A DNA stretch of 64,000 bases from Bacteroidales bacterium (GCA_047638115.1 JBLJBB010000057.1:15686-79685), one strand, 5' to 3'; positions 976 through 22,903 are shown, counted from the first letter of the stretch. Translations and numbers: made by a program. Notes: generated by a model from the letters alone, not told the origin.

Positions 976-1001
976 TTTTAAAGTTTGTTTTCTTGGTTCT
1001 G

Positions 1002-3227: not shown

Positions 3228-3252
3228 TATATAGCACACAAAATCACATTTT

Positions 3253-3289
3253 AACACCCTAAAGTAGCAATATTTTAGGGTGTTTTTTT
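3253..3289 (+). terminator. Rho-independent terminator after csp
   Basis: Perfect 11-bp stem AACACCCTAAA / TTTAGGGTGTT with a 10-nt loop, followed by T7. Confidence 0.65.
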
Positions 3290-3294
3290 ATATT

Positions 3295-5562: not shown

Positions 5563-5564
5563 AA

Positions 5565-6608: not shown

Positions 6609-6610
6609 TG

Positions 6611-7300: not shown

Positions 7301-7349
7301 AATTTATTGTTTTTTAAGTTAATTTTTCTTATTTGTTAATTTGATACTG

Positions 7350-7357
7350 CAAAAATA
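7350..7357 (-). promoter_or_regulatory. Candidate -7 box for the Zn-peptidase/aroB/755-aa operon
   Basis: Minus-strand TATTTTTG, 49 nt upstream of ATG at 7300. Confidence 0.4.
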
Positions 7358-7370
7358 CATTGTTTTTTTG

Positions 7371-7378
7371 TATTTTTG
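7371..7378 (+). promoter_or_regulatory. Candidate -7 box for the M49-like peptidase gene
   Basis: TATTTTTG, 46 nt upstream of ATG at 7425. Divergent to the box at 7350-7357. Confidence 0.4.
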
Positions 7379-7424
7379 AGTTCGATTTTTTATAACGATA
7401 TTTATCAACTAAAATTATATATTT

Positions 7425-9068: not shown

Positions 9069-9134
9069 TCAGAACAACACGATTTTTGAAAACATTTATT
9101 TGATTTTAATCTAATAAATCTGTTAGTTTCATAA

Positions 9135-9173
9135 AATAGTGATATTAATTTTTTATTGATATCACTATTTTTT
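9135..9173 (+). terminator. Rho-independent terminator after the peptidase gene
   Basis: Perfect 11-bp stem AATAGTGATAT / ATATCACTATT running into a T-run. Confidence 0.6.
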
Positions 9174-9175
9174 AT

Positions 9176-9183
9176 TATCTTTG
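9176..9183 (+). promoter_or_regulatory. Candidate -7 box abutting the crp/fnr start (leaderless or near-leaderless mRNA)
   Basis: TATCTTTG ends 4 nt before ATG at 9188. Confidence 0.4.
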
Positions 9184-9187
9184 TGGA

Positions 9188-9865
9188 ATGAAACACGATT
9201 GTATCGATTGCCCTTATAAATCTCAAGCATCCAAAACATTGGATGAAAATGGTATGGCAAAGCTTACTGCTAACCATGTTGCCGTGAGTTTTGCAAAAGG
9301 GGACACCATTATCAAACAAGGAAACTACACTACAAATGTAGCTTTCTTACGAAAAGGGTTTGTTAAAATCCACATAACTGGTCCAGCTGGAGAACATATC
9401 ACCCGTTTGGCAAAAGCACCTACACATTTAGGGCTTCCAACCACTTTTGGAGTAAATATAAATCAATACTCCGTTACGGCTATTTCTGATGTGGAAGTTT
9501 GCTTTATCGATTTTAACACATTTCTCTCATTTTTACATGAAAATACAGCATTTTCATACCAGATTATTTTAGAATTGTGCAACAACGAGCTAGAATCTTA
9601 TCGGAGATGTGTCAACAGAACTCAGAAACAGACACGAGGAAATGTGGCAGATATTTTATTAGAGTTTTCTGGAGAGATCTACAATTCAGATACCTTCACG
9701 ATGCCCTTAAACCAAACTGAAATTGGCACTATGTGTGATTCTACGAGAGAGAGCATCAGTCGTATTTTATCTGAGTATGAAAAAGATGGAATCATCACCA
9801 TTCAGGGTAAAACAGTGACGATACTTAATAAAAAGTCGTTGGAGATGATCAGCAAAAACGGGTAA
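9188..9865 (+). CDS. Crp/Fnr-family transcriptional regulator
   Basis: cNMP-binding-like fold (GDTIIKQGNYTTNVAFLRKGFVKI), C-terminal HTH (TRESISRILSEYEKDGII) and an N-terminal Cys pair (CIDC). Confidence 0.8.
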   Translation: MKHDCIDCPYKSQASKTLDENGMAKLTANHVAVSFAKGDTIIKQGNYTTNVAFLRKGFVKIHITGPAGEHITRLAKAPTHLGLPTTFGVNINQYSVTAISDVEVCFIDFNTFLSFLHENTAFSYQIILELCNNELESYRRCVNRTQKQTRGNVADILLEFSGEIYNSDTFTMPLNQTEIGTMCDSTRESISRILSEYEKDGIITIQGKTVTILNKKSLEMISKNG

Positions 9866-9866
9866 T

Positions 9867-9908
9867 TCGTGTGCTCGTGTGCTCGTGTGCTCGTGTGCTC
9901 GTGTGCTC
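9867..9908. repeat. Tandem octamer (TCGTGTGC) x5.25
   Basis: Read directly. Five perfect head-to-tail copies start 1 nt after the crp/fnr stop codon. Confidence 0.95.
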
Positions 9909-9937
9909 CAGTCCCTAGTCACTTGTCATTTGTCCAT

Positions 9938-9973
9938 AAAAAAAAGCACCCTTTTGGGATGCTTTTTTTTTTT
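9938..9973. terminator. Bidirectional rho-independent terminator between convergent genes
   Basis: A8, then GCACCC-TTTT-GGGATGC hairpin (one bulge), then T11. Lies between the 3' ends at 9865(+) and 9995(-). Confidence 0.6.
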
Positions 9974-9994
9974 ATAGAAATCTTTAAAATCTAA

Positions 9995-11344
9995 TTATTT
10001 TTTAAGATTGTGTTTTTTAACAAAATCTAAAAGAACAGTTTCTAAAGTTGGAGTTCCAATTTCTTGAAGTTCATAACCAATTTTAACCACAGGTTGTTTG
10101 ATTTTCACAAAACGTGGTAGGTCAATAGGAGTACCAATAACTACTGCATCACAAGGAGTGTTAGCGATAGTATCTTCAAGGTCTTTCATTTGAGCATCTC
10201 CGTATCCCATAGCTGGAAGTAATGTTCCAATGTTTGGATATGTTACGAATGTATCTTTTAAAGTACCCACAGTGTAAGGTCTTGGGTCAATAAGTTCAGA
10301 AGCACCATATTTCATAGCAGCAACAGTACCTGCACCAATTTTCATTTCACCGTGAGTTAAAGTTGGACCATCTTCAACAACTAAAACTCTTTTACCTTTG
10401 ATTAATTCTGGTTTGTCAACAGTTAAAACTGAAGCAGCATCAATCATGATAGCAGAAGGATTAATTTTTGCTAAGTTAGCTCTAACGGTATTGATATCCA
10501 CTAAAGAAGCAGAGTCAATTTTGTTCATAACGATAACGTCAGCCATTCTAGCAACCACTTCACCTGGGTAGTAACTAACTTCAGCACCTGGGCGCAATGG
10601 GTCAGCAACACCAACATAAAGATCTGGAGTATAGAAAGAGAAGTCATTGTTTCCACCATCCCAAAGGATAATATCACAACCGTCTGGATCATTTTCAGCA
10701 GCGCGAACGATAGCTTCATAATCAACACCAGCATAAATTACATTTCTTTTTGTAACTACGTGTGGTTCATACTCTTCCATTTCTTCGATAGTACAGTTGT
10801 GTTTTTTAAGATCTTCAACAGTAGCAAATCTTTGAACTTTTTGTTTGTTCAAATCTGGATCGTAAGGCATTGGGTGGCGAATAGCAACCACTTTAAGTCC
10901 CATACCTACCAAATACTCAATAATTCTTCTAGAAGTTTGTGATTTTCCACATCCTGTACGAGTTGCACCAACTGCGATTACTGGTTTTGTAGATTTGATC
11001 ATGGTATCTTTTGGTCCCATTAAAGTAAAGTTAGCACCCGCTGCATTTACGATAGCACTGATTCCCATAACATAAGAGTAAGGTTTATCACTATAAGCGA
11101 AAACACACTCATCTACGTTAAATTTTTTGATTAAAGCAGGAAGTTCAGATTCTTTAAAGATAGGAATTCCACTTGGATAAAGATCTTCTCCTGCTAATTC
11201 TTTAGGGTAAGGTCTTCCGTCGATACCAGGAATTTGTTCAGCAGTAAAAGCAACCACGTTATAATTCGGGTTGTGTCTGAAATAGGTATTGAAGTTGTGG
11301 AAATCTCTTCCAGCTGCTCCAATAATAATAACGTTTCTTTTCAT
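9995..11344 (-). CDS. COG2403-family P-loop protein (predicted GTPase / cyclic 2,3-diphosphoglycerate synthetase-like)
   Basis: 449 aa. N-terminal Rossmann-like MKRNVIIIGAAGRDFHNF and P-loop GATRTGCGKSQTS. Family recalled from memory, not searched. Confidence 0.6.
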   Translation of the reverse strand: MKRNVIIIGAAGRDFHNFNTYFRHNPNYNVVAFTAEQIPGIDGRPYPKELAGEDLYPSGIPIFKESELPALIKKFNVDECVFAYSDKPYSYVMGISAIVNAAGANFTLMGPKDTMIKSTKPVIAVGATRTGCGKSQTSRRIIEYLVGMGLKVVAIRHPMPYDPDLNKQKVQRFATVEDLKKHNCTIEEMEEYEPHVVTKRNVIYAGVDYEAIVRAAENDPDGCDIILWDGGNNDFSFYTPDLYVGVADPLRPGAEVSYYPGEVVARMADVIVMNKIDSASLVDINTVRANLAKINPSAIMIDAASVLTVDKPELIKGKRVLVVEDGPTLTHGEMKIGAGTVAAMKYGASELIDPRPYTVGTLKDTFVTYPNIGTLLPAMGYGDAQMKDLEDTIANTPCDAVVIGTPIDLPRFVKIKQPVVKIGYELQEIGTPTLETVLLDFVKKHNLKK

Positions 11345-11399
11345 AAATTATTGATTTTAAGTTATATAAAAAATATTTGATTGTATTCTTACAAGGTCG

Positions 11400-11407
11400 C
11401 AAATATA
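11400..11407 (-). promoter_or_regulatory. Candidate -7 box for the COG2403 gene
   Basis: Minus-strand TATATTTG, 55 nt upstream of ATG at 11344. Confidence 0.4.
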
Positions 11408-11530
11408 GTAAAAATTTTTCAATTTTGCAACCAAAAAAAATCCACAATTCTGGAACTCTCAATATTTCAATAAATTAAACCATAAATCACCACAATTCAC
11501 TTCTATCTTAATAAGGTTTTAGGTTTTTAG

Positions 11531-11625
11531 ATTCATTATTCACTATTCACTATTCACTATTTTTGGGCATTCCGGCTCACTGCATTCGCCTTCGGTCTCC
11601 GGCCTGTACTCTTCGTTTCGCTGCC
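11531..11625 (+). repeat. GC-rich modular repeat, copy A (5' heptamer array plus truncated core)
   Basis: (ATTCATT/ATTCACT)x5, then GGGCATTCCGGCTCAC..CGTTTCGCTGCC. It stops at the point where copy B continues. Confidence 0.7.
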
Positions 11626-11627
11626 AA

Positions 11628-11888
11628 GTGTTTATTCATCCATATATAACTCAAAAAAATGGACATATAGAAAGCTTTTATTCAATACTTTCAAGACATT
11701 TAGATCGATATGTTTTCTGGTCTTTGGACGAGCTAAAAACAAATTTAGATCTATTCTATGAGTATTTTAATGAAAGAAGGCTCCATTCTTCCATTGCAAA
11801 CTTATCTCCTTCAATATTTTGGTCATGTTGGAACAACGGTTGGGTAGAGAGAACGGTAGATTTAAAAAAAAATGATAAACAAGTTTAA
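11628..11888 (+). pseudogene. C-terminal remnant of an integrase-core (rve) DDE transposase (IS3/IS481-like)
   Basis: ..PYITQKNGHIESFYSILSRHL..FNERRLHSSIANLSPSIFW matches the end of the rve domain, including the catalytic E region. Only 86 codons, GTG start, no N-terminal domains. Confidence 0.7.
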
Positions 11889-11990
11889 ATTATTAATCCC
11901 TTATTATGAGATTAAAACTAGGCTATTAGAACAAGAAAGATTAGAAAAAAATAAAATTTTTCTTGATTGTATTTCAAATTAAAAAAAATG

Positions 11991-11998
11991 TATATTTG
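11991..11998 (+). promoter_or_regulatory. Candidate -7 box for the giant T9SS cargo gene
   Basis: TATATTTG lies inside the ORF-track N-terminal extension, 79 nt upstream of ATG at 12078. Confidence 0.4.
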
Positions 11999-12077
11999 CA
12001 CTCACAAATTAAATTTAACCCTGTCCGAAAAAAAGGGGGTTAAACCAGTTTTAATGAGTAAAAACGGGAAGAATGAA

Positions 12078-15000
12078 ATGAATAAAATAGTTCTCATGCG
12101 GAATTTAGTCTGGGTAATGCCGGTGTTTGTTTTTCTTAGCCTGATGAGTCCGATGGCTTTTGCGCAGGAATATTACTTTCCCTATAAGGTCAAAGTGGAA
12201 TCTGTTGCGGGACAATGTTATGACGATTGCTGGCTGATCATCACGATGCTGGATGATCAGAATAATGAAATAGTGGTGAATCCTTCTACACATACTACAG
12301 TGGGTGCGGTTTCGCAACCATTGTATAACATTCAGTACCATTACACGAATCAGAATGGGGGTGCCAATACCCGGTATGACACGGTGGGGATCATCCAATT
12401 GTCAGCTGCCACTTATTGTGTGGGGATTACAGCCTCGATTCTGATCATACAAGGGGGAAACCCAATCTATATTGAACTTGACACGACCATTTGCAATGTG
12501 GAAATCAATACAAATTATGTGCATTTAGAGGCCTCTATCTTGTCGGGTATTGCCGGAAACACCGATGGGAATGGTCGTGAGTTTTGCGGAACCCGTAATT
12601 CTTTTGAATGTGCCAGCGTAGGCAGGATTCAGCTTTATCTGCAAAAGGGAAATCTACCCTATCATGTCTGTATTTACAATGAGGCGCAAGATACCGTAAG
12701 AACAGCCACTTTCGCAGGACCAGTGCAGTATGGAGAAGATATTGGTTATGCTGATTATAGTGACTACTACACTTTTGATAGTTTGCCTGTCGGCAATTAC
12801 AGCATTATAGTGTATGATTCGTGTAACTACTCGTTATGGCTTTCTGCTTCGATTCAAGCCATAGAACCATCGACCCCGGAGATGTACTGCTATTCAAGAA
12901 ACAACATTGTTGACAGTAATGTCATTATTTTCCCTTTTATTATTCACTGGAATCAAAATATTCATAATTATCACCATTCTTATCTGGATAGTCTTGTGCA
13001 ATATCGATTTATCAATAGTGGGGAAGATACTACTGAATGGCAGAACGTTCCTGGTAGTACTCTTGGCCATTCATACTTTAATGCGCTGGATACTGTTTTC
13101 GGAGCACAAAACTATTGCGACATATACTATGATACTGTGACCTTCCAGATACGGGATCATTGTCAGGACACAATATTTTCGAAGAGCTTTACTTTCATTC
13201 CGTTTTTCACCTATTATCTTCAGGAGGAAACGGTGGAAGAAATGTTTAATGAGCATTTGACACCGGATACTTGTTCCATTCAAGCCAATTCAGGCTCTAT
13301 CACACAGGCGTATACCATTTTTTGGTCTTACAATTATGACAGCTATAATTCTTCTGATGCGTATTCGCAGTTTTATACAGGTCCTTTGACCCTGGAAATC
13401 AGAAATACCATAGACAACTCCATGATTGTCAGTAGTAATGCCAATAGTTTGCAGGAACTTTCCGCGACAGTGGTTTTTTATAATGATACGACCCTGCCGT
13501 TCCATGTGGTTTTATATGATGCGAAGGGTTGTGTGTTTTATGAGATGACCCATATATATACTACGATCATACAACCCTTGCAGGATTTGCATTACGTCTA
13601 TCATACAAACTCGGATTTTGGCTCTTGTAGTGGTCGTTATCTTAGTGTAGGTGAAGCAGAAGTTGACGTTGAAGCTTTTAGAGACACTGTTGTGGTGCGA
13701 TTGATTGACAGTCCTTTGTATAACAAATATAATTTCACGGGTACATTTAGTCATGGGGTGTGGACATATATGATGAATGATACTGCCAATACGACGACTA
13801 CGGTAGAATTTACCACTGGAGATGGTTGGAACGTGACTATTCGTGACAATCAACTTTCACCGGGACTGTATCAATTTGTTTGTACTACACAGTGTGGTAG
13901 CGATACCATACTCTTTCAAAATGAGGGCATTTATCGTGCTGATGTTGATTTTGAAACATTGCCGCAATATGATATGACGCAAGTTTGTGACAGACTTCTT
14001 GTGAGACCATACGGGGCTGTGGGACAATCCGATAAGTATTACGTTTCACCCAATGTCGATAATGACGAACCATCGATGATACATGACACATTCGGGGTGA
14101 ACTATTCGGTGGTGAATGGTATGGCCGGAGGATACAACCCCTGGTTAGATAATAATGGCGCATTTGTGTTTACGGTTCCCGGACAGTATGTGATTCAAAG
14201 TAGTTTTTATTCTGATTGCGTACATAGGTATCATTATGATACGGTGGTATTTGATCCAGTTTATATTGATTTTGACATGGAATATGCCGTGATGTGCAAT
14301 AATACGGAATCTATCGGCAATGTTCTCACGCATGCTATCCAGGGTTCTACCCCTTATACTTATTATTTGTATAGTGCTGCAGATTTGGGAGGAAGTATGA
14401 TTGCATCCAATAATACGGGCAATTTTTATAATGTTCCTATGATGGAAGGACAAATGCTTTCGGTGTTGGTAGTAGATTCCTGTATGAACAGTTTCTATGT
14501 GAATCTGGTGGCCACACGGCTTTCCCAAAGCACTCTGTTATGGGAAGTGGGTGCATCTAATGACCCTATTCATTGTGAAGGTGACAGTTTGCGATTATCT
14601 GCACTCCCATTTAGTGAAAATGTCAGCTATCAATGGAGTGGGCCTAATTCGTTTTCGAGTACATCACAAAACAACAACATATACTTGCCGTATGGTAGTG
14701 AAAGCGGCTGGTATAAAGTGACATTTCTGAACACCCAATGCGGCATTTTCTCTGATAGTATATATGTTGAGGTTCACAGGGCTCCTGTTGTTACCATTTT
14801 GAGTGATACCATGATCTGTCCGGGGCGAAGCATCACATTAGCTTTTGCGGTCCAAGGTTCCGGAATGGTAGAATATGATATTTCTTACTATGGAGCACTA
14901 TCTTCAGGGATCCTGTATTTAACGACGCAGGGCGGCGACACTTCGCTTTATGATTTTCAAATTCATTGTGATCATGTTTTTTGGCCGCAGAATATCATGG

Positions 15001-16556
15001 ATGAGCAATGCAGGTACGGAGCCAGTATTGACAGCACTTACGTCTCTATTTTCGGATTGGAAAATTACTCGGACACTTCAAATGTGACCGTTGTTGACGA
15101 CTCAGCCTGCTACAATTATGAAGCTATACTGATGGCAAGTTCCAACTTGCAGCTGCCGTACTTTGTTTATTGGTATGATTCAGAACTGCAAGGTAATCTT
15201 TTACAGTGTGATACCATTTTTGAAGTTACCGATGTATCCACTTTTGTAATTCCTCATTTGCTTGAAGAAACAACGCTTTATGTGACTGCTGCAAACCATA
15301 ATACCTGTGCCCCTATTTGGGGAACTATTTATGATGTGGTCAACATGACAAATGGAACTTCGCTCCTGGCTGGGAGTGAGGGAGTCCGTTTTTATGATAG
15401 TGGTGGAGAAAATGGAAATTATTCTAATAACGAACATTTAACCCATACTTTTAGTTGTCCTGACAGACCACGGCTTTATTTGTATTTCAATGAACTGAAT
15501 TTTGCGGTTGGGGATACTTTATTTGTGTATGCGGGACTGACGGCACATCCTGATTCCATGCTTCTTGCCGTTACGGGCACCAATTTCCCTGCTCAATTCA
15601 TCGTGGGAAATTCCGCTGTCACTTTTGTGTTTTCTTCCAATTGGATTAATCATTTGTCGGGCTGGAGCATCGATATCTTGACGAATGTGTCGATGACTGC
15701 TGTTCACGCAAATTTGATTCCCCCTTATCTTGAAACGGTTTTTCTGGATGTTTGTCAAACGAAGGAACCTTACCTGTATCCGGGATTTGAACCAATGGAT
15801 GTATCGGAACCGGGTGCTTTTCAAGTCGAAAAAACTTTTACTTCTGCTATAGGTTGTGACAGTCTCGTTATGCTTATCGTAACGGTACATCCCAATTATG
15901 TAACGGAATTTGAAGACGAGATTTGCGAAGGTTCTGCATATCAACTACATGGTTTTCAGATTTATCCTAATGAAACAGAAGGACAATCCGTAATCCGGAG
16001 TACCGTTCATTATCAAAGCATGTATGGTTGCGACAGCGTTTGTCAGCTCACGTTGGAAATAAGGGATACTTCAATTTATTTCCAAACCAGTGTGGACGAT
16101 TTTTGCGACGAATATGAAATGGACATACTGGTGGAGACATCATTGGGCAATATCGAGTGGAATACGGGTGAAACCACCCATACCATCCATATTGTCGAGC
16201 CCGGCTATTATACTGTTACGGCCAAAGATGAACATTGTTCCAACACTCAAAGAATTTTTGTAAAACCCTGCGAGTTTACCATCCATCTTCCCAATACAAT
16301 TACATCCTCTTCCAAGGATGGCCTCAACGATTATTTTTCTATTAACGAAAAGCAGCGGATTCAAATCAGGGAACTTGAAGTGTACATATACTCCCGTTGG
16401 GGTGAATTGGTTTATTCATCTAAAGATATAAATTTTATGTGGAATGGAGAAATTAACGGAAAGGTTATCAGTGACAATGTGTACGTTTATGTGATATTTT
16501 GGACTGATCGTCAAAATCAAGAGCATCTAAAGAAAGGTTCACTTATAACATTATAA
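12078..16556 (+). CDS. Giant secreted adhesin-like protein with T9SS type B C-terminal sorting domain
   Basis: Signal peptide MNKIVLMRNLVWVMPVFVFLSLMSPMAFAQ. C-terminus is ..KDGLNDYFSI..IYSRWGELVYSS..WNGEINGK..VYVYVIFW..KKGSLITL (gliding-motility CTD pattern). Internal Ig-like SYQWSGPNSFSS module and CUB-like GVRFYDSGGENGNYSNNEH..LYLYFNELNFAVGDTLFVYAG. Start alternatives are 11967 and 12054. Confidence 0.8.
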   Translation: MNKIVLMRNLVWVMPVFVFLSLMSPMAFAQEYYFPYKVKVESVAGQCYDDCWLIITMLDDQNNEIVVNPSTHTTVGAVSQPLYNIQYHYTNQNGGANTRYDTVGIIQLSAATYCVGITASILIIQGGNPIYIELDTTICNVEINTNYVHLEASILSGIAGNTDGNGREFCGTRNSFECASVGRIQLYLQKGNLPYHVCIYNEAQDTVRTATFAGPVQYGEDIGYADYSDYYTFDSLPVGNYSIIVYDSCNYSLWLSASIQAIEPSTPEMYCYSRNNIVDSNVIIFPFIIHWNQNIHNYHHSYLDSLVQYRFINSGEDTTEWQNVPGSTLGHSYFNALDTVFGAQNYCDIYYDTVTFQIRDHCQDTIFSKSFTFIPFFTYYLQEETVEEMFNEHLTPDTCSIQANSGSITQAYTIFWSYNYDSYNSSDAYSQFYTGPLTLEIRNTIDNSMIVSSNANSLQELSATVVFYNDTTLPFHVVLYDAKGCVFYEMTHIYTTIIQPLQDLHYVYHTNSDFGSCSGRYLSVGEAEVDVEAFRDTVVVRLIDSPLYNKYNFTGTFSHGVWTYMMNDTANTTTTVEFTTGDGWNVTIRDNQLSPGLYQFVCTTQCGSDTILFQNEGIYRADVDFETLPQYDMTQVCDRLLVRPYGAVGQSDKYYVSPNVDNDEPSMIHDTFGVNYSVVNGMAGGYNPWLDNNGAFVFTVPGQYVIQSSFYSDCVHRYHYDTVVFDPVYIDFDMEYAVMCNNTESIGNVLTHAIQGSTPYTYYLYSAADLGGSMIASNNTGNFYNVPMMEGQMLSVLVVDSCMNSFYVNLVATRLSQSTLLWEVGASNDPIHCEGDSLRLSALPFSENVSYQWSGPNSFSSTSQNNNIYLPYGSESGWYKVTFLNTQCGIFSDSIYVEVHRAPVVTILSDTMICPGRSITLAFAVQGSGMVEYDISYYGALSSGILYLTTQGGDTSLYDFQIHCDHVFWPQNIMDEQCRYGASIDSTYVSIFGLENYSDTSNVTVVDDSACYNYEAILMASSNLQLPYFVYWYDSELQGNLLQCDTIFEVTDVSTFVIPHLLEETTLYVTAANHNTCAPIWGTIYDVVNMTNGTSLLAGSEGVRFYDSGGENGNYSNNEHLTHTFSCPDRPRLYLYFNELNFAVGDTLFVYAGLTAHPDSMLLAVTGTNFPAQFIVGNSAVTFVFSSNWINHLSGWSIDILTNVSMTAVHANLIPPYLETVFLDVCQTKEPYLYPGFEPMDVSEPGAFQVEKTFTSAIGCDSLVMLIVTVHPNYVTEFEDEICEGSAYQLHGFQIYPNETEGQSVIRSTVHYQSMYGCDSVCQLTLEIRDTSIYFQTSVDDFCDEYEMDILVETSLGNIEWNTGETTHTIHIVEPGYYTVTAKDEHCSNTQRIFVKPCEFTIHLPNTITSSSKDGLNDYFSINEKQRIQIRELEVYIYSRWGELVYSSKDINFMWNGEINGKVISDNVYVYVIFWTDRQNQEHLKKGSLITL

Positions 16557-16649
16557 GAAATATGGATAGAGGTAGTAAAACCACGTATTCTGCTACTTCA
16601 AGAAAGAGACTTGACACGATTATGATCTAGATGATGCTTTGAATTAAGT

Positions 16650-17149
16650 TTTTGTTGGTATTCGATGGGCTGGGAAGTCCAATTTAATGTTCCAACAGAT
16701 TGCAAGATTGATTATTTAGAGTATTTAAAAGAGATCTGGATTGTTTTTTCTATTGAGAACATTGTTTCAAAAATGGTTGATAAAGTATCAATTAAAAAAT
16801 ACTATTTTATAGACAATGGATTATTGAATCTATTTTTAATGGATCCAAAAACTTCATTATTGGAGAATCAAGTTGCGATATCATTGTATCGTTTATATCC
16901 AAATGATCTCTTTTTTTATAATAAAGGAATTGAAGTTGATTTTTATCTTTTTGAAAAACAAATTGCAATTGAGGTTTGTTTATAGTATAATTAACTCTGA
17001 AATATATAAACGAGAAGTTACTGCATTATTAAAACTCAAATCTCAAATTGAGATAAAAAAAAATGTTGATTATTACAAAAGAGGAAGAAAAACTAATTAC
17101 AATAGATGACCAAGAGATACAAGTGGTTCCCAGCTGGAAGTTTTTGTAG
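16650..17149 (+). pseudogene. Degraded AAA+ ATPase (COG1373, DUF4143-type) gene: internal deletion plus frameshift
   Basis: Walker-A-like GIRWAGKSNL (16659-) hits a stop. DUF4143-like KKYYFIDNGLLN..EVDFY is in ORF 16665..16985. The C-terminal ..YKREVTALLKL.. and MLIITKEEEKLITIDDQEIQVVPSWKFL are in other frames. Confidence 0.5.
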
Positions 17150-17176
17150 TTTAAACAACAATATCTGAAGGTTTAA

Positions 17177-17220
17177 CGCTTCGCTGTTGAAAGGTCTAAT
17201 CGTTTCGCTGTTGAAAGGTC
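17177..17220 (+). repeat. Two tandem copies of a 20-mer CG(C/T)TTCGCTGTTGAAAGGTC
   Basis: Read directly, with a 4-nt spacer. A third related copy is at 57458-57477. Confidence 0.85.
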
Positions 17221-17265
17221 AATAGCCATCTACTATTAGCCCTAATTAACACATTTACTAATTTA

Positions 17266-17464
17266 TTATTCATTCTTCATTATTCACTATTTTTGGGCAT
17301 TCCCCTCGCTTCGCTCGGGTCGGGCTTGTTCCGGGGTTCGCTTCGCTCCCGTGCTTCATTCCGCTGCCGCTCCATTTCGCACCGGCTTCGCCGCCCTCCA
17401 CATCCCTAATGCGTTCAAAACCTTCGGTTTTGTAGTGAATAACTAATAGTGAATAGTGAATAGT
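17266..17464 (+). repeat. GC-rich modular repeat, copy B (heptamer array / 137-nt core 17295-17431 / inverted heptamer array)
   Basis: Core is GGGCATTCCCCTCGCTTCGCTCGGGTCGGGC..GGGGTTCGCTTCGCTCCCGTGCTTC..ACCGGCTTCGCCGCCCT..ATCCCTAATGCG, ending in hairpin AAAACCTTCGGTTTT. Flanks are ATTCACT-type on the left and AGTGAAT-type on the right. Confidence 0.8.
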
Positions 17465-17467
17465 TTT

Positions 17468-17498
17468 CGCTCCGTAGGTGCGTTATATTTGTAGCAAA
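17468..17498 (+). repeat. Hairpin plus TATATTTG-box repeat, copy H1
   Basis: CGCTCCGTAGGTGCG (one mismatch in stem) followed by TTATATTTGTAGCAAA. Confidence 0.75.
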
Positions 17499-17520
17499 CG
17501 ATTACCATGACAAGATACCA

Positions 17521-17550
17521 CGCTGCAGCGCAGCGTTATATTTGTGAACA
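17521..17550 (+). repeat. Hairpin plus TATATTTG-box repeat, copy H2
   Basis: CGCTGCAGCGCAGCG (6-bp stem) followed by TTATATTTGTGAACA. Confidence 0.75.
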
Positions 17551-17574
17551 AAATATCTTTTTCTTTTTCCCTTT

Positions 17575-17791
17575 ACTTTTTGTCTTGATACAAAAAGTAA
17601 CAAAAAAATCAAGGCCACAAAAATTCCACCCGCTCAGTCTGACCGATTAACGAACGCTACCTGCGCTTCAAAAACCGCGGGTATTTTTATCCAATTTGGT
17701 TCATTTATGGTGCGGTTTTTCGAATCATCTCCCCGCAAGCGTTCGTAAATCGCTTCAGACTTTCACGCTATTCCGCCTCGTTTGTGGCCTT
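17575..17791. repeat. Composite palindromic element (9-bp hairpin 17575-17598 plus ~180-nt imperfect inverted repeat 17611-17791)
   Basis: ACTTTTTGT/ACAAAAAGT hairpin. Arms pair as AAGGCCACAAA..TTTGTGGCCTT, CAGTCTGACCGATT..AATCGCTTCAGACT, AACGAACGCT..AGCGTTCGT and AAAACCGC..GCGGTTTT. Confidence 0.7.
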
Positions 17792-17857
17792 GCCATCGCA
17801 CATTCCACTTAACTTCATTTAAAGTAATTTGTTCACAAAACTAAGGTCACTGAGTAG

Positions 17858-17960
17858 AAGCGCCCTCACGATAAATTGGAGAAACGAAGGAATAAACTGC
17901 TTCGTATCGAAGTGCCGATGCCATGAATGAAGAATGAAGAATGAAAAATGAAGAATGAAC
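17858..17960 (+). repeat. Possible 3' remnant of a fifth GC-rich repeat copy with (TGAAGAA)x5 array
   Basis: AGCGCCCTCACG resembles the 3' module GGCGCCCT..CCCTCACGC of copy D. It has a CGAAG..CTTCG hairpin, then TGAAGAA heptamers at 17924-17960. Confidence 0.35.
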
Positions 17961-17990
17961 AGCTGCAGCGCAGTGTTGTATTTGTGAACA
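17961..17990 (+). repeat. Hairpin plus box repeat, copy H3 (degenerate)
   Basis: AGCTGCAGCGCAGTG followed by TTGTATTTGTGAACA. Confidence 0.65.
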
Positions 17991-18157
17991 CTCTATTCTA
18001 ATAAAAGTGTGGAGTTTTATTATGTAAGTATAAGATATTTAGTAGTTTGAAAATTTGCACTTTCTGTAAATATATTTTATGCGTACACAAATTTTACTCC
18101 CAACACATTGCACCATTTTTATTTTTTTAAGTTCCACACTTTTATTAGAATAGTGTT
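17989..18157. mobile_element. MITE-like element (~170 bp) with ~26-bp terminal inverted repeats
   Basis: Left end is AACACTCTATTCTAATAAAAGTGTGGAG and right end is TTCCACACTTTTATTAGAATAGTGTT. 21/21 nt are perfectly complementary, plus a further 4-5 nt across one indel. AT-rich interior with no ORF. Confidence 0.65.
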
Positions 18158-18221
18158 TTTGGGTTGCTGATTCAGAAGCATTTGCAATTTAATAACTGCG
18201 GGTTACGAAACGATATTGGTT

Positions 18222-18527
18222 TCACCACTCTTCATTTTTCATTTTTTCAAACCGCTTGCGGTTTGAAAAAGCGTTAGGGATTTGAAGGGCGGCGAAGCCG
18301 GTACGAGCTGGAACGAGCGCCGCAATGAGATGGCTTTGATGATGAAAATGACTTAAGCGAAGTGCAGCGAAGTACGGGAGCGAAGCGAACCCCGGAAAAG
18401 CCCGACGGCGGTGCGTTGGGTCGTGGGTGGATAACGCCGGAACGCCCAAAATTAGTGAATAGTGAATAATAAATAGTGAATAGTGAATAATGAATAGTGA
18501 ATAATGAAGAATGAAGAATGAAGAATT
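18222..18527 (-). repeat. GC-rich modular repeat, copy C (inverted orientation; 200-nt core 18248-18447 plus long heptamer arrays)
   Basis: The reverse complement aligns with copies B and D (GGGCGTTCCGGC..CGTCGGGCTT..GGGGTTCGCTTCGCTCCCGTACTTC..GGCGCTCGTTC..ACCGGCTTCGCCGCCCT..ATCCCTAACGC..AAACCGCAAGCGGTTT). About 11 heptamers (AGTGAAT/ATGAAGA) at 18451-18527. Confidence 0.8.
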
Positions 18528-18572
18528 GACCAGAAACGAGAAAGATAATCCTTTTGACTTTTAAAAAAAAAT

Positions 18573-18610
18573 ATTAGCTTATTAGCTTATTAGCAAATTA
18601 GCTTATTAAT
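18573..18610 (+). repeat. Tandem octamer (ATTAGCTT) x4.75
   Basis: Read directly. The inverse word AATAAGCTAATAAG recurs at 54542-54555. Confidence 0.9.
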
Positions 18611-18613
18611 TTG

Positions 18614-18621
18614 TATTTTTG
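18614..18621 (+). promoter_or_regulatory. Candidate -7 box upstream of the TfoX stub
   Basis: TATTTTTG, 24 nt upstream of ATG at 18646. Confidence 0.35.
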
Positions 18622-18645
18622 TGAATTATTTAAAATACAAAAATT

Positions 18646-18762
18646 ATGGCTTCGACGCAGAAATTTGTGGAGTTTGTTTTAGAGCAAATTCATGACGCAG
18701 GGGAGATTACTTCTCGAAAGATGTTTGGAGAATATGCCATCTATGCTGATGGGAAAAAGTAA
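18646..18762 (+). pseudogene. Truncated TfoX/Sxy N-terminal-domain gene (38 codons)
   Basis: MASTQKFVEFVLEQIHDAGEITSRKMFGEYAIYADGKK* matches the first third of TfoX_N proteins (..RKMFGEY.IY.DGK), then stops. Not in the ORF track because it is too short. Confidence 0.55.
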
Positions 18763-18826
18763 AACTGAGGGTACTTCAATAACTCATAATGTCTCAATTT
18801 TCCAATTTTATGTTGAAAGATGCCTC

Positions 18827-18834
18827 TATTTTTG
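18827..18834 (+). promoter_or_regulatory. Candidate -7 box for the VOC gene
   Basis: TATTTTTG, 34 nt upstream of ATG at 18869, inside the ORF-track N-terminal extension. Confidence 0.4.
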
Positions 18835-18868
18835 CCATCTAATTCATTGTTTAACAAATAAAAATAAA

Positions 18869-19228
18869 ATGAAAAAATTTATTGAATGGGTGGAGATCCC
18901 AACCGCAGATTTTCAAAGAGGTCTTAACTTCTACAATTCCGTGTTTAAACTTTCAATGGAGCCGATCGATTCCGGTACAGAACAGATGGCGTGTTTCCCA
19001 ACCGGGGAAGGGGCAATTTTTTACAAAGAGGGGTACCTCCCTTCTGATCAGGGAAGTATGATTAGTTTTACTGTACCAGACTCGATCGAAGAGACAGCTC
19101 TTCGCGTGGAAGCTCTCGGCGGAAAAGTGTTGATCCCTAAAACTCCGATTGATGAAGAGGGGAGAGGATATTTTGCAGTTTGTATTGACTCTGAAGGAAA
19201 TAAGATCGGTTTATACGAAAAATTTTAA
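18869..19228 (+). CDS. VOC (glyoxalase/bleomycin-resistance/dioxygenase) family protein
   Basis: 119 aa from the internal ATG. Single VOC-like beta-alpha-beta module (MKKFIEWVEIPTADFQRGLNFYNSVF..GGKVLIPKTPIDEEGRGYFAVCIDSEGNKIGLYE). Confidence 0.7.
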   Translation: MKKFIEWVEIPTADFQRGLNFYNSVFKLSMEPIDSGTEQMACFPTGEGAIFYKEGYLPSDQGSMISFTVPDSIEETALRVEALGGKVLIPKTPIDEEGRGYFAVCIDSEGNKIGLYEKF

Positions 19229-19271
19229 CCTTACAAAAAGTGTCCATGAAAATGTGCACTTCCTTATTTTT

Positions 19272-20084
19272 ATGTGTATTCAAATAGCATCACCATCCGA
19301 CAAACTGAAACCCTTTGTTAAACAATATTGGGCGGTTGAGAATGTGCTGCAACAAGGGGAACAATATTCACAACGGGTGATCCCAAGCGGATTGACGGAG
19401 CTGATCATGTACCTCGATCATAAACCTACTGTTTCTACCAATAACAGATTGATGGAGGATCCTTTTTTGCTTAACGGACAACAAAACGATTTTTACGATC
19501 TTTTGATCTCCGAAAATCTATCATTATTCTCCATCTCTTTTCATCCACAAGGGTTGAGCCAATTTTTTAAGCTACCCCTTCAGGAGCTGTCCAATCAAGA
19601 TATTCCGTTGCGATATATCAATAAAGATCTCTACACTGAACTGGAAGCGCGGTTATCGCCACAGATATCGTTTCAACAAAAAATCGAGATTGTGGAGCAA
19701 TGTTTGATCAGGTTGCTGCACGACAACAAAAAAGGGTACGAATTTCAACGAATCCATAACATCATCGAAATGATTCGGGTGAAACAGGGGTTGGTTGAGA
19801 TTGAAGAGCTCTCCTCTGTGGCTTGTCTGAGTAGGAAACAGTTCGAGCGCATTTTTCTGGAATATATCGGAATCTCTCCGAAACAATATTTAAAGATTAT
19901 CCGTTTCCAATCCTCAATCTTTCTGAAATCGAAGAATGAGGATATTTCATTAACCGAATTGGCTTATGAGAGTGGCTATTATGATCAGTCACATTTCATC
20001 AATGATTATAAGAAAATGACAGGAATAACACCAAAACAGTTTTTTCTGGATTGTCAATCGATCCATTCCGATTTCTTTGAGTAA
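19272..20084 (+). CDS. AraC-family transcriptional regulator
   Basis: C-terminal double HTH (..LSRKQFERIFLEYIGISPKQYLKIIRFQ.. and ELAYESGYYDQSHFINDYKKMTGITPKQF). Internal ATG chosen to avoid overlap with the VOC gene. Confidence 0.8.
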   Translation: MCIQIASPSDKLKPFVKQYWAVENVLQQGEQYSQRVIPSGLTELIMYLDHKPTVSTNNRLMEDPFLLNGQQNDFYDLLISENLSLFSISFHPQGLSQFFKLPLQELSNQDIPLRYINKDLYTELEARLSPQISFQQKIEIVEQCLIRLLHDNKKGYEFQRIHNIIEMIRVKQGLVEIEELSSVACLSRKQFERIFLEYIGISPKQYLKIIRFQSSIFLKSKNEDISLTELAYESGYYDQSHFINDYKKMTGITPKQFFLDCQSIHSDFFE

Positions 20085-20135
20085 TTTTTTAACATTTTTT
20101 TTAGTTTGTTGCAGAAAGTGAATTTAACTTTTGAT

Positions 20136-20143
20136 TATATTTG
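20136..20143 (+). promoter_or_regulatory. Candidate -7 box for the lipoprotein / Cys-His-rich gene pair
   Basis: TATATTTG, 60 nt upstream of ATG at 20204. Confidence 0.4.
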
Positions 20144-20203
20144 CATTCTAATTAAATTATTGTGATTATTAATAAAAAATATGTAAAACTAAAAACTAAA
20201 AAA

Positions 20204-20404
20204 ATGAAAAAACTATTTATCGTTCTTTTTGCAGCGGGACTATTGATCTCTTGCAATTCCAAAAAAGTGGAGCCACAACCAGAAACGGCTGCTCCTGTAG
20301 TACTTGAAGCAGAAGTGGAACAAGCTTTACAAAAAAATATTGAGCTTAATGAGCAAATCAATGAGCTTGATGCTGAATTAGAAACTATTATAAACGAACA
20401 ATAA
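20204..20404 (+). CDS. Small lipoprotein with acidic coiled-coil tail
   Basis: MKKLFIVLFAAGLLISC lipobox, 66 aa. Tail is EAEVEQALQKNIELNEQINELDAELETIINEQ. Confidence 0.65.
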   Translation: MKKLFIVLFAAGLLISCNSKKVEPQPETAAPVVLEAEVEQALQKNIELNEQINELDAELETIINEQ

Positions 20405-20417
20405 AAAAAACTGAGAT

Positions 20418-21203
20418 ATGAAAAAACTAATGATAATCGTAACAGCTTTCCTATTTGTTTTTGCTGTTAGTGCTCAAAATGCGAAAACTGAAACCAAAAA
20501 AGAGGTTAAACAAGAAGTAAAAAAAGAAGTTAAAGCTGAACATAAATGCGCAGGTGATACAAAAACTGACCACAAATGTGCAGATAAATCTAAAGATGCT
20601 AAAGGTTGCTGCGACAAAAATAAAGATAAAAAAGAGTGCGCAGACAAAGGGAAAGACCACAAATGCGCTGACAAAGGAAAAGATGCTAAAGGTTGCTGCG
20701 ACAAAGGTAAAGACCATAAAGGTTGTACAGACAAAGGGAAAGATCACAAATGCTCTGACAAAGGAAAAGACCATAAAGGTTGTGCAGACAAAGGAAAAGA
20801 TCACAACTGTGCTGACAAAGGTAAAGATGGAAAATGTTGTTCTGAAGGGGAAGCTAAAAAAGGTGATTGTTGTAAAGATGGAAAAGCTTATGGACACCAT
20901 AAAGATGGCAAATGTGGACGTGATTTTGGTCAAGAACGCGCTAAAAATGCTAAAAATAAAGTAGAGAAAGAAACCGTGGTTAAAGAGGTTGCTGCTGAAG
21001 TGGATCAAGCTATTGTAACAACTAAAAACCGTACTCAAGAGGCACGTACTGCTGTTCAAGATAAATATAAGAAAAAACAGATCACTAAAGCACAATACGA
21101 AGAAAAAATTAAACGTATTGATGAGATCGAAAAAGAGGTGATTCGTATTGAAAACGAACGCAAAGCTACTGATCAGGTGATCAAAACAAAAGTTTCAAAG
21201 TAA
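20418..21203 (+). CDS. Secreted Cys/His/Lys/Asp-rich tandem-repeat protein with C-terminal coiled coil (putative metal-binding)
   Basis: Signal peptide ..FAVSAQ. Residues 42-169 carry about 10 units of the (H)K(G)C(A/S/T)DKGKD type, with 17 Cys and 9 His. The C-terminal ~90 aa are K/E-rich helix. Confidence 0.75.
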   Translation: MKKLMIIVTAFLFVFAVSAQNAKTETKKEVKQEVKKEVKAEHKCAGDTKTDHKCADKSKDAKGCCDKNKDKKECADKGKDHKCADKGKDAKGCCDKGKDHKGCTDKGKDHKCSDKGKDHKGCADKGKDHNCADKGKDGKCCSEGEAKKGDCCKDGKAYGHHKDGKCGRDFGQERAKNAKNKVEKETVVKEVAAEVDQAIVTTKNRTQEARTAVQDKYKKKQITKAQYEEKIKRIDEIEKEVIRIENERKATDQVIKTKVSK

Positions 21204-21241
21204 TCTTGTATTAGAACTTATTTGTTTTAAAAACTTTATAC

Positions 21242-21289
21242 TATTGAGTCAAAGTTAAACGTTATTTAATTTTGACTCAATATTTTTTT
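21242..21289 (+). terminator. Rho-independent terminator after the Cys/His-rich gene
   Basis: Perfect 12-bp stem TATTGAGTCAAA / TTTGACTCAATA followed by T7. It overlaps the TTG start proposed by the ORF track for the next gene. Confidence 0.65.
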
Positions 21290-22804
21290 ATGAAAAAACA
21301 AATTCAAGTTCTTGTAGCTGTTGTATCAGCATTAGTTATTACCATATTGTTCCATTACAAAGAGATAGGATTAAACCTATTACTTGTAGAGATTCCTGTT
21401 TTTATTTGGCTTTTATGGACCAAACAAATTAAACTACACAATTATATACAAATTTCACTGTTTGTGGCTACACTACTGACTGGATTTGCAACTGTTCTGG
21501 TGTATTCGATCCTCTCTTATGTAGTCCATTTTATGCTGCTATTTGTATTTGTAGGTTTGATGATTTATCCTGAAACAAAATCGTTACTTACTTCTATCTC
21601 ACTTTCCATTGTTAACTTATGGAAATCTCAACTCAATTTTTTACACCATTTGAATGAAGTGAGATGGGGAAAATTTAAAATTGGTAGAATGATCCGTTTT
21701 GTTTTGGTTCTCATCGTTCCGATATTAGTCATACTTTTATTTATAGGTATTTACAGAGCGTCAAATCCTGTTTTTAATGATTATATGGAAAACGTTGGAG
21801 TTTATTTAGATAAAATCTGGAATTTTATCATTAAATATGTTGACATGTCTGTGATTCTTACGTTTATTCTAAGTTTAGGGATCAGTTCTTTTGTTCTGAT
21901 TAGAAGTACGACACCTCAGTTTATTGAGATAGATCAAAAAAGTTCAGAATTTTTAAAAAGAAAAAGGGGTTTCTCTTTTGTCCCTTTTCACAATTTAAGT
22001 CTTAAAAGGGAGTTACAATCTGCCATTTTTTTATTAGTTGTTTTAAATGGGCTTTTGTTACTGCTGAATATGATCGATATGAAAAGTGTATGGTTTGGAT
22101 TTGAATGGAAAGGGGAGACTCTTAAAGATTTTGTTCATGAAGGAACTTATTACCTGATCTTCTCAATCCTAATCTCCATAGCGATTATTTTGTTCTATTT
22201 TAGAAAAAATCTTAACTTTTACCTTAAAAATAAGTGGTTGAAAAGATTGAGTTATGTTTGGTTGATTCAAAACGGATTTTTAGCCATCACCGTGTTGATC
22301 AGAACCTTTTTATATATCCAACACTTTGCACTTGCATACAAGCGTATTGGTGTTATTATTTTTCTCATACTCACTATTTATGGTTTATACACAGTTTTCA
22401 TCAAAGTGAAGGATAAAAAATCAATTTTTTACTTGTTTAAGATGAATAGCTTTGCCTTTTTTATGGTTTTAAGTGTTGCAGCTCTTTTCAATTGGGATCT
22501 CATCATTGCCAAATATAACTTCAAACATTATCAAACCTCATTTGTACATCTCGATTTTATGGCTGATTTGTCGCACAAAACACTCCCTTACTTAGATAAA
22601 TCAATAGAAGAACTAAACAATATTGATTCTGTTCAAACGATCAAGTTTATGTTTAGAGGAGATTATTTTATGACTCCTGAAGATTATATTCTACGGATTG
22701 AAAAAGAGAAAGAGGAGTTTAAAACGAATTGGGAAAATAAATCGTTCCTTTCCTGGAATCTCCCCGAGTATTTAGCATATAAAAAGCTTTTTAATAATCA
22801 ATAG
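21290..22804 (+). CDS. Polytopic membrane protein (DUF4153/DUF4173-like, family uncertain)
   Basis: 504 aa from ATG at 21290 with about 10-11 hydrophobic helices and a soluble C-terminal ~100 aa. CDS is solid; the family label is a weak recollection. Confidence 0.7.
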   Translation: MKKQIQVLVAVVSALVITILFHYKEIGLNLLLVEIPVFIWLLWTKQIKLHNYIQISLFVATLLTGFATVLVYSILSYVVHFMLLFVFVGLMIYPETKSLLTSISLSIVNLWKSQLNFLHHLNEVRWGKFKIGRMIRFVLVLIVPILVILLFIGIYRASNPVFNDYMENVGVYLDKIWNFIIKYVDMSVILTFILSLGISSFVLIRSTTPQFIEIDQKSSEFLKRKRGFSFVPFHNLSLKRELQSAIFLLVVLNGLLLLLNMIDMKSVWFGFEWKGETLKDFVHEGTYYLIFSILISIAIILFYFRKNLNFYLKNKWLKRLSYVWLIQNGFLAITVLIRTFLYIQHFALAYKRIGVIIFLILTIYGLYTVFIKVKDKKSIFYLFKMNSFAFFMVLSVAALFNWDLIIAKYNFKHYQTSFVHLDFMADLSHKTLPYLDKSIEELNNIDSVQTIKFMFRGDYFMTPEDYILRIEKEKEEFKTNWENKSFLSWNLPEYLAYKKLFNNQ

Positions 22805-22845
22805 ATAAACCCAATCTATCAGCTCAATTACCGCACAATTTTTAG

Positions 22846-22853
22846 TATTTTTG
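22846..22853 (+). promoter_or_regulatory. Candidate -7 box for the activase gene
   Basis: TATTTTTG, 50 nt upstream of ATG at 22904. Confidence 0.4.
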
Positions 22854-22903
22854 CGCTCTAAATTTTCTACTGCTTATAGCAATAAAGATAAGACAAAAAG
22901 AGC

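Follow-up and report, generated by a model that had tools for sequence, protein, structure and literature searches.

In an uncultured, low-GC (~32%) Lentimicrobium-like member of the Bacteroidales, 8.6 kb of DNA between 11.46 and 20.1 kb of our window (the whole 64 000 nt stretch that was analysed) raises the question of how debris and foreign sequence came to lie between a COG2403 gene and a lipoprotein gene. These 8.6 kb contain three pseudogenes, a 1.5 kb tract free of ORFs and all but one of the four GC-rich repeat copies, in a window that otherwise consists of tightly spaced, intact ORFs. The first-pass annotation interpreted the region, which holds one clearly foreign gene beside its three decayed ones, as an integration hotspot or eroding genomic island. 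We found that the region is a genuine but ordinary hotspot, made up of at least four pieces, in which genes are gained, lost and degraded: close relatives differ from one another at this locus, but it is not a single insertion between adjacent housekeeping genes. The reading that we favour, and consider probably correct, is that of a composite plasticity region whose four segments have separate histories.

The composition of the DNA gave a mixed picture. Mean GC content is 38.4% across the region versus 33–34% in its flanks, and GC3 exceeds the background of ~0.23 in a type IX secretion system (T9SS) cargo gene (0.40), a VOC gene (0.40) and an AraC-family gene (0.45), but looks native in a transposase (rve) stub (0.23) and a DUF4143 fragment (0.22). 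In a window scan, tetranucleotide outliers were confined to 12–16 kb (z 3.6–5.1) and 23–27 kb (z 5.7–6.6), the strongest being a CoA-activase gene at 22.9–27.1 kb, beyond the region and in a supposed housekeeping block. The sliding-window analysis that the first-pass annotation had proposed as a check bore out a break at 12–16 kb, but one that is patchy and exceeded by an outlier outside. The compositional break is genuine, the cargo gene is the sole clear outlier inside the region, and the region is not uniformly atypical. Hand-counted GC values proved exact at 14521–14580 (43.3%), 40021–40080 (28.3%) and 19381–19440 (46.7%), but sprA has an overall GC content of 33.4%, not the 38% that had been quoted.

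The hallmarks of an integrative element were largely missing. When every ORF and the six-frame translation were searched against Pfam, no intact integrase or recombinase emerged, the sole match being the rve stub of ~85 aa, and no tRNA or tmRNA genes were present across the window. The short direct repeats anticipated at the edges were not found; the longest word common to the two edges was an AT-rich 11 nt, and 17/200 shuffles gave one as long. No credible Rfam family was detected, whether by gathering or by E-value threshold; a plant miRNA model came closest, at 29 bits against a cut-off of 102. The proposed edges themselves coincide with breaks in synteny, at 11440 and 11561 on the left and at 20118 on the right. 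No contig was found in which the COG2403 gene adjoins the lipoprotein gene; the contigs of relatives stop in repeats or carry other neighbours. A scan of species-representative genomes with the COG2403 protein returned at least 80 loci, at no more than 88% amino acid identity, none of which had the window's neighbours among the matches listed, and metagenome contigs queried with the same protein likewise yielded no such locus. The closest relatives were missing from the species-representative listing, and were recovered through protein clusters.

At the left edge, homology with contigs L180 and L181 stops at 11440, and homology with HGW-Bacteroidetes-20 and its relatives stops at 11561, within a heptamer array. 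The HGW-Bacteroidetes-20 contig is collinear with the window from 111 to 11561 and diverges thereafter. The independent Logan contig L081 covers the passage from the COG2403 gene into the heptamer array and stops at 11560, and three further contigs (L182–L184) agree on this junction. The array belongs to copy A of a dispersed repeat (11531–11627, + strand), in which (TTCACTA/TTCATTA)n is followed by a GC-rich core; it is a shortened version of elements at 17261–17462 and 18221–18530. Directly downstream lies the predicted C-terminus of an IS3/IS481-type DDE transposase (11628–11888, + strand; ~85 aa; rve_3 E=3.6e-12, profile positions 7–67/67), so that the fusion of a truncated repeat to an rve stub is present as first described. 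The stub matches the last ~60 residues of transposase models (IS3 307–366/369, IS481 221–281/284), and no full-length DDE transposase with terminal inverted repeats occurs there. Because its only homologues in the protein database were two short fragments at 51–56% identity, with no close full-length relative, we found no evidence for an active insertion sequence of this type. The breaks in Logan contigs at 11560 and 11893 had suggested that the IS end is multi-copy, an idea that we dropped as the search for stub homologues gave it no support; the break at 11893 may reflect a strain polymorphism near 11884, where homology with contig L187 begins. Between the COG2403 block and the cargo gene, the connecting sequence (11561–11884) is made up of repeat and IS end, and the link is known from the present assembly alone.

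The second segment (11954–16573, + strand) is a cassette containing an intact 4.5 kb T9SS type-B cargo gene of foreign composition. The cassette brings a promoter-like -7 box of its own, TATATTTG (11991–11998); the gene probably starts at 12054, and its stop lies at 16556. Its high GC content was confirmed at 40.5% for the whole gene, and its type-B sorting domain by C-terminal matches to PF13585 CHU_C (E=1.1e-14) and TIGR04131 (35.2 bits against a cut-off of 35). The N-terminus, MNKIVLMRNLVWVMPVFVFLSLMSPMAFAQ, is signal-peptide-like in appearance (a putative Sec signal). Apart from a weak Ig_7 match, the passenger region has no Pfam family, and comparison of the protein with solved structures returned no match. 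Since the T9SS translocon is represented in the host by SprA (ORF 46632–53894, SprA_N E=7e-176), the cargo protein can be secreted. A dN/dS of 0.26–0.48, compared with 0.01–0.10 in neighbouring genes, indicates a gene under constraint yet fast-evolving, and hence functional.

The cargo gene and its promoter also occur in three other, unrelated gene contexts at 92–95% nucleotide identity. In L165 and L166, homology with the window is limited to 11954–16573 (92.0%), between an ECF sigma/DUF4252 cluster and purL; in L169 and L185 it is limited to 11955–16615 (94.8%), between an outer-membrane protein gene and small ORFs, with Y1_Tnp nearby; and L187, a Lentimicrobium sp. MAG contig, matches 11884–16567 at 92.1%, supporting the position of 11884–11953 next to the cargo gene. 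The GC3 of the gene in L165 (0.37) falls within that of the neighbouring housekeeping genes (0.25–0.41), whereas its neighbours in the window and in L169 have values of ~0.2–0.27, which makes the lineage of L165 the likely donor. The three unrelated contexts, together with a GC3 that matches the neighbours in one of them, point to single-gene horizontal transfer, whose direction and recency are judged solely by GC3 and gene context. The copies in L165 or L169 might conceivably be paralogues, or belong to a sister species whose genome has been rearranged.

The third segment consists of a pseudogene and a pile-up of repeats. The AAA_14/DUF4143 ATPase pseudogene (16620–17149, + strand) retains a Walker-A-like remnant, and has suffered an internal deletion and two frameshifts, in agreement with the broken gene originally reported: the DUF4143 fragment at 16665–16985 spans profile positions 46–158/160, the AAA_14 domain is absent upstream, and C-terminal pieces in two other frames run to a stop at 17147–17149. 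The adjoining tract (17150–18640) was correctly described as repeat-built and devoid of credible ORFs, as no ORF exceeds 75 aa and neither Pfam nor Rfam gave a match. It is a cluster of dispersed intergenic modules from several repeat families, comprising copy B of the heptamer/GC-rich repeat (17261–17462), a long imperfect hairpin (17610–17792), a 27 nt inverted-repeat element (17987–18159), copy C on the reverse strand (18221–18530), three copies of a 29 nt promoter-like unit (17469, 17522 and 17962) and TATTAGCT octamers (18572–18603). Tandem intergenic 7 nt units form arrays at 11531–11558, 17448–17461 and 18454–18530, and the arrays at corresponding sites in L171 and L183 are longer. Inverted arrays bracket cores of 100–300 nt in copies B and C, and the heptamer/GC-rich elements, with four related copies in the window, resemble MITEs in their terminal inverted repeats, small size and multiple copies; a cognate transposase was not found. 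The possibility that the GC-rich core is a structured RNA or REPIN was rejected (folding z -1.3 and -0.2, with only a small terminal hairpin recurring). Repeat modules recur in the window at 36106–36312, ~54515–54576, 57430–57710 and 62694–62784, and are dispersed genome-wide intergenic modules. The first-pass annotation had set its interpretation against a gene order conserved among relatives, repeats included, with no compositional break. In part such conservation exists, since the ATPase remnant and repeat tract are kept at 98.6–99.6% in conspecific contigs, but so does the break.

The right-hand segment begins with a tfoX stub of 38 codons plus stop (18646–18762, + strand; TfoX_N positions 1–25/91), the length first assigned to it, left by an internal deletion of ~245 nt that starts at 18757. 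The VOC and AraC pair noted at this end is also present: an intact VOC/glyoxalase-fold gene (18869–19228, + strand; dN/dS 0.08 against an 83%-identical relative) is followed by an intact AraC-family regulator with DUF6597 and HTH_18 domains (19272–20084, + strand; dN/dS 0.035). In that relative (L162, 82.7% nucleotide identity), which is collinear with window positions 18498–27127, the order is heptamer array, intact 121 aa tfoX, VOC, AraC, lipoprotein, Cys/Lys protein, DUF4153 and activase. Because of this synteny, we regard the tfoX–VOC–AraC module as old, and ancestral to the right flank. Conspecific contigs L170–L173 (97.3–99.6% nucleotide identity) keep window positions 14207–18232, but lack 18757–20117, and with it VOC and AraC; they carry instead the 3′ part of tfoX and an (ATGAAAA)n array, and homology returns at 20118. 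Between the equivalent of 18635 and tfoX, these contigs contain a 4.6 kb FISUMP gene (1517 aa). L175 and L176 share the window's arrangement at 98.9%, so that gene content differs among conspecifics beside a right flank that is conserved from 20118. All junctions from 14207 onwards are backed by independent ENA contigs.

These observations are consistent with the following model. Segment 11531–11953 would be a dispersed heptamer/GC-rich repeat that a deletion has joined to an IS3/IS481-type transposase, of which the final ~85 codons remain. Segment 11954–16573 would be a promoter-plus-gene cassette that arrived horizontally, by acquisition from a Bacteroidales lineage of higher GC content or by exchange with one, while in segment 16620–18640 the ATPase pseudogene and repeat pile-up had presumably reached fixation by the time the sampled conspecific strains split. 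Segment 18646–20117 would be the old tfoX–VOC–AraC module of the right flank, eroding differently strain by strain, with an internal tfoX deletion in the present strain and, in others, apparent loss of VOC and AraC and gain of the FISUMP gene. From the position of the repeat arrays and IS remnants beside breakpoints, we infer that they may provide the substrate on which slippage, deletion and recombination (illegitimate or homology-facilitated) act, which would make the intergenic zone tolerate insertions and deletions with no dedicated integrase.

A single horizontally gained island between the COG2403 and lipoprotein genes, now decaying, would explain the raised mean GC content, the transposase stub with two more pseudogenes inside and the coincidence of both edges with synteny breakpoints. 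We nevertheless judge it very unlikely: integrase, tRNA and att repeat are all absent, the tfoX–VOC–AraC module is collinear with the right flank in the 83% relative, and the IS stub and ATPase remnant have native GC3. Furthermore, other genomes share the cargo gene alone, with sharp, gene-sized homology limits, and an empty site occurs in none of the genomes found. At the opposite extreme, the locus may be nothing special, a typical interval of a genome that is repeat-rich and mosaic throughout. We counted against the plasticity reading that repeat modules lie in other intergenic regions, and that the COG2403–Crp pair (9175–11440) also occurs in an unrelated context in L180 (92.9% nucleotide identity); the top compositional outlier, the activase gene, is also outside the region. 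The concentration of pseudogenes, GC-rich repeat copies and ORF-free sequence within 8.6 kb, at least three structural variants at species-level divergence and the complete collinearity of the 11.5 kb left block with HGW-Bacteroidetes-20 make this explanation unlikely.

The left half might also be partly an assembly artefact, in which a repeat-induced misjoin set the cargo/ATPase/repeat block beside the COG2403 block. Short-read contigs assembled independently from the same sample break off at 11560 and begin again at 11893, the sister genome departs from the window directly after the heptamer array, and the bridging 330 nt consist of a repeat and an IS end. A misjoin is highly improbable in our assessment, given that L187 supports the sequence next to the cargo gene, four contigs back the link from COG2403 to the heptamer array, and the ENA contigs back every junction from 14207; moreover, the truncated repeat and rve stub form one continuous ORF, like a genuine deletion junction. 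A more ambitious extension of the plasticity reading is that the heptamer/GC-rich modules are active cassette-exchange sites in Lentimicrobium-like Bacteroidales, at which promoter-bearing genes for surface or secreted proteins (T9SS cargo, FISUMP) are inserted, deleted or swapped between co-resident lineages without a classical integrase. We regard this as a long shot; a Y1 (RAYT/IS200-like) transposase, found near two other cargo-gene contexts, might be involved in such exchange.

Among known systems, the locus resembles plasticity regions and recombination hotspots without an integrase, in that content varies between conserved flanks in conspecifics, genes of foreign and of native origin are interspersed with pseudogenes, and IS remnants and repeats lie at breakpoints; it differs in that a conserved flank is demonstrated on the right only, the left flank being followed in no conspecific contig. 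With classical tRNA/att-bounded, integrase-encoding islands it shares a partial compositional shift, a mobile-element remnant and strain-variable content, but it has no integrase, tRNA or flanking direct repeats, and its segments have independent histories. The cargo gene is like other Bacteroidota type-B (CHU_C/TIGR04131) cargo in its C-terminal sorting domain, signal-peptide-like N-terminus, large repetitive extracellular product and SprA-encoding host, and unlike them in its passenger, with no Pfam (bar the weak Ig_7) or solved-structure match, and in behaving as a mobile unit of one gene. Tandem heptanucleotide repeats in intergenic DNA are known as the cyanobacterial STRR and LSSR, and TAACTGA repeats have been reported from Beggiatoaceae, Cyanobacteria and some Bacteroidetes (PMC4679880). 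Like these, the repeats described here are tandem 7 nt units, often just 5′ of genes, that vary between strains in copy number and presence; unlike them, the units are TTCACTA, TTCATTA, ATGAAGA and ATGAAAA, and the heptamers flank a GC-rich core of 100–300 nt in inverted orientation, giving a MITE-like look. Finally, what the stub shares with IS3/IS481 elements is the C-terminal end of the rve (DDE) catalytic domain, but only ~85 codons are left, with no N-terminal HTH, complete DDE triad or identified terminal inverted repeats.

No new kind of system is revealed by this locus. Annotators should mark three genes here as pseudogenes and one as foreign, and should avoid calling genes in the repeats; the fragility of MAG contigs at heptamer/GC-rich repeats is a warning. 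What the locus documents is strain-level flexibility at one site in an uncultured wastewater/anaerobic-digester lineage of Bacteroidales, where a small regulator/enzyme module and the competence-related tfoX are being lost in strain-specific ways, and where one gene, encoding a large surface protein secreted by the T9SS, appears to move between genomes together with its promoter, as a unit.

Between the COG2403-type gene and the small lipoprotein gene (11.46-20.1 kb), every element listed by the first-pass annotation was found; its reading of the interval as a single decaying island was not borne out. Instead, the interval is a composite zone of plasticity: it comprises four segments with distinct histories, and includes one gene-sized horizontal acquisition and three pseudogenes. 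At its left end, the ORF at 11628-11888 encodes the C-terminus of an rve transposase (rve_3, E=3.6e-12; positions 307-366 of 369 in the IS3 model), and the 5' end of this stub is fused to a truncated repeat (11531-11627). A large T9SS type B ORF with CHU_C and TIGR04131 type-B sorting domains follows, ending at a stop codon at 16556. The ATPase gene is broken, with a DUF4143 fragment at 16665-16985 (profile positions 46-158 of 160), no AAA_14 domain, and its remaining C-terminal pieces in two other frames, extending to a stop at 17147-17149. The tract at 17150-18640 is devoid of ORFs >75 aa and matched nothing in Pfam or Rfam. Beyond it lie a 38-codon TfoX_N stub (18646-18762) and the VOC and AraC genes, both under purifying selection (dN/dS 0.08 and 0.035, respectively). 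The window belongs to a contig of 97,992 bp, and proteins matching at ≥90% identity are filed under the source names "Lentimicrobium sp." and "Bacteroidetes bacterium HGW-Bacteroidetes-20".

Hallmarks of an integrated island were lacking. We found no tRNA or tmRNA genes, and no intact integrase among the Pfam domain matches. Att-like repeats, suggested as a check at the two edges, were absent; the best shared word was 11 nt, AT-rich and within the range of shuffled sequence. In none of the contigs compared did the COG2403 gene adjoin the lipoprotein gene.

The claimed compositional break is real in GC3 and tetranucleotides, but patchy. Against a background of ~32% GC and GC3 ~0.23 in the window, GC3 reached 0.40 in the T9SS cargo gene, 0.40 in VOC and 0.45 in AraC, whereas the rve stub (0.23) and DUF4143 fragment (0.22) were native-like. 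Within the interval, only 12-16 kb was a tetranucleotide outlier (z 3.6-5.1, 2-kb windows), and the strongest outlier of the whole window lay in the supposed housekeeping block, at the activase gene (23-27 kb, z 5.7-6.6). This gene (22904-27133) encodes a 1409-aa double BcrAD_BadFG/DUF2229 CoA-enzyme activase, with 46% GC and GC3 0.54 in a 32% GC genome. Its anomaly is old, since an 83%-identical relative has it at the same position, with GC3 0.51. Three GC values counted by hand in the first-pass annotation were exact on recount; its figure of ~38% for sprA should read 33.4% for the gene as a whole. The presence of sprA (46632-53894) shows that the organism possesses a type IX secretion system. 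A further T9SS cargo gene, with a Por_Secre_tail type-A CTD and a PKD domain, is located at 55337-57379 and has mildly raised GC (39%) and GC3 (0.31). About 100 nt upstream of a gene with its start at 57959 lies a perfect (ATCT)n microsatellite of ~9 units (57826-57861), a candidate tract for slippage (phase variation).

The cargo gene occupies three contexts besides that of the window, as judged from the contigs of its 32-member 90% protein cluster. Four contigs (L165-L168) place it between an ECF sigma/DUF4252 cluster and purL, with 92.0% nucleotide identity and homology confined to 11954-16573. In L169/L185, it lies between a gene for an outer-membrane beta-barrel protein and small ORFs, at a distance of 2.5 kb from a Y1_Tnp gene (94.8% over 11955-16615), and in a Lentimicrobium sp. 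MAG (L187) it follows Y1_Tnp and a 90-aa ORF (92.1% over 11884-16567). The MAGs to which these contigs belong are ERZ15185023 and ERZ28614920 for L165/L166, JGI 3300025858 for L169 and GCA_034005265.1 for L187. The stretch shared with the window begins, in every comparison, ~35 nt upstream of the TATATTTG box at 11991-11998, and ends 17-59 nt past the stop codon. The box agrees with the Bacteroidetes -7 promoter consensus, TAnnTTTG. GC3 of the flanking housekeeping genes in L165 is 0.25-0.41, close to the 0.37 of the cargo gene there, and neighbours of the gene in the window and L169 have GC3 of 0.2-0.27. GC3 and context point to transfer of this one gene into low-GC genomes, with a higher-GC lineage as its source. 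The gene is intact, and its dN/dS of 0.26-0.48, versus 0.01-0.10 in neighbours, indicates that it probably encodes a fast-evolving but functional secreted protein.

The right side has a different history. A contig with 82.7% identity over 8.4 kb (L162) is collinear with 18498-27127, and carries a heptamer array, an intact 121-aa tfoX, VOC, AraC and the right-flank genes (lipoprotein, Cys/Lys-rich repeat protein, DUF4153 protein and 1409-aa activase). The tfoX-VOC-AraC module thus belongs with the right flank, and is older than the species split. The tfoX gene of the window has lost ~245 nt internally, from 18757. Conspecific contigs L170-L173 (97.3-99.6% nucleotide identity) keep 14207-18232, including the ATPase remnant and repeat tract, and have, between the promoter at ~18635 and a 110-aa tfoX, a 4.6-kb gene whose 1517-aa product contains a FISUMP domain. 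They lack 18757-20117 (VOC and AraC), with an (ATGAAAA)n array instead, and homology restarts at 20118. Both arrangements circulate, as L175 and L176, from other samples, match the window layout (98.9%) and L170-L173 differ. When L162 is taken as the outgroup, one clade has gained FISUMP and lost VOC-AraC as derived changes, and the tfoX deletion is a derived change of the other. The secreted 261-aa Cys/Lys-rich protein (20418-21203) is made of tandem repeats of 29 aa (87 nt) whose motif is KCADKGKD..., matched no Pfam or NCBIfam family, and shares 257 of 258 aligned residues with conspecific contigs.

On the left, where aroB, two peptidase genes and a Crp/Fnr regulator gene accompany the COG2403-type gene, the sister genome HGW-Bacteroidetes-20, GCA_002840945.1, is collinear with 111-11561 (93-95.5% nucleotide identity). 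Past the heptamer array, its contig has a complete GC-rich element and REP-like sequence up to its end, in place of the rve stub. Independent short-read contigs of the source sample break off exactly at repeats (11560 and 17346), and none of the independent contigs confirmed 11561-11884, the link between the two blocks; a repeat-induced misjoin there is possible. L180/L181 share only 9175-11440 (COG2403 and Crp) with the window (92.9%), with unrelated genes on either side, and this 'housekeeping' pair, too, may have passed between lineages. In L180 the pair lies at 9905-12152, and its neighbours have higher GC3.

The GC-rich elements with inverted heptamer arrays at their borders belong to a single family, of which the window contains four copies: the truncated copy at 11531-11627, one with an internal deletion (17261-17462), the fullest, on the reverse strand (18221-18530), and a GC-rich core without heptamer arrays between two intact genes outside the interval (36106-36312). 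Copies of other sub-modules from the 1.5-kb tract lie at 54515-54576, 57430-57710 and 62694-62784. These outside occurrences identify genome-wide intergenic modules, rather than island-specific debris. Intergenic heptanucleotide arrays have been described in some Bacteroidetes, Cyanobacteria and Beggiatoaceae (PMC4679880). A structured core of the GC-rich element was rejected, as folding was no better than for shuffled sequence. The ORF-free tract also contains a long imperfect inverted repeat at 17610-17792, CAAGGCCACAAA...TTTGTGGCCTTG (inner arms 17644-17658 and 17738-17752), with no Rfam match, and a 27-nt inverted-repeat arm (17987-18013) that resembles sequence following the 36106-36312 copy (36360-36385). 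A different heptamer family, GACTACG/GACAACA/GACTACA, is inserted in L171 (4024-4160), adjoining the counterpart of the fullest copy, and occurs in L165 (14640-14680) just downstream of the cargo gene; a related copy lies at 62694-62784 of the window. In L169, palindromic units of ~30-40 nt (1678-1795 and 2335-2444) lie on both sides of the Y1_Tnp gene, a REP/RAYT-like arrangement, and related copies occur at the HGW-Bacteroidetes-20 contig end (L182, 69-106) and in intergenic sequence of the window (57560-57620).

At the species level there are at least three structural variants, with breakpoints at or beside repeat arrays. The repeats and IS remnant probably promote the deletions and insertions in this composite zone. 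A separate reading, of low probability, has promoter-bearing genes for surface proteins exchanged through the heptamer-array modules without an integrase. Plasticity zones are already a well-known type of locus.
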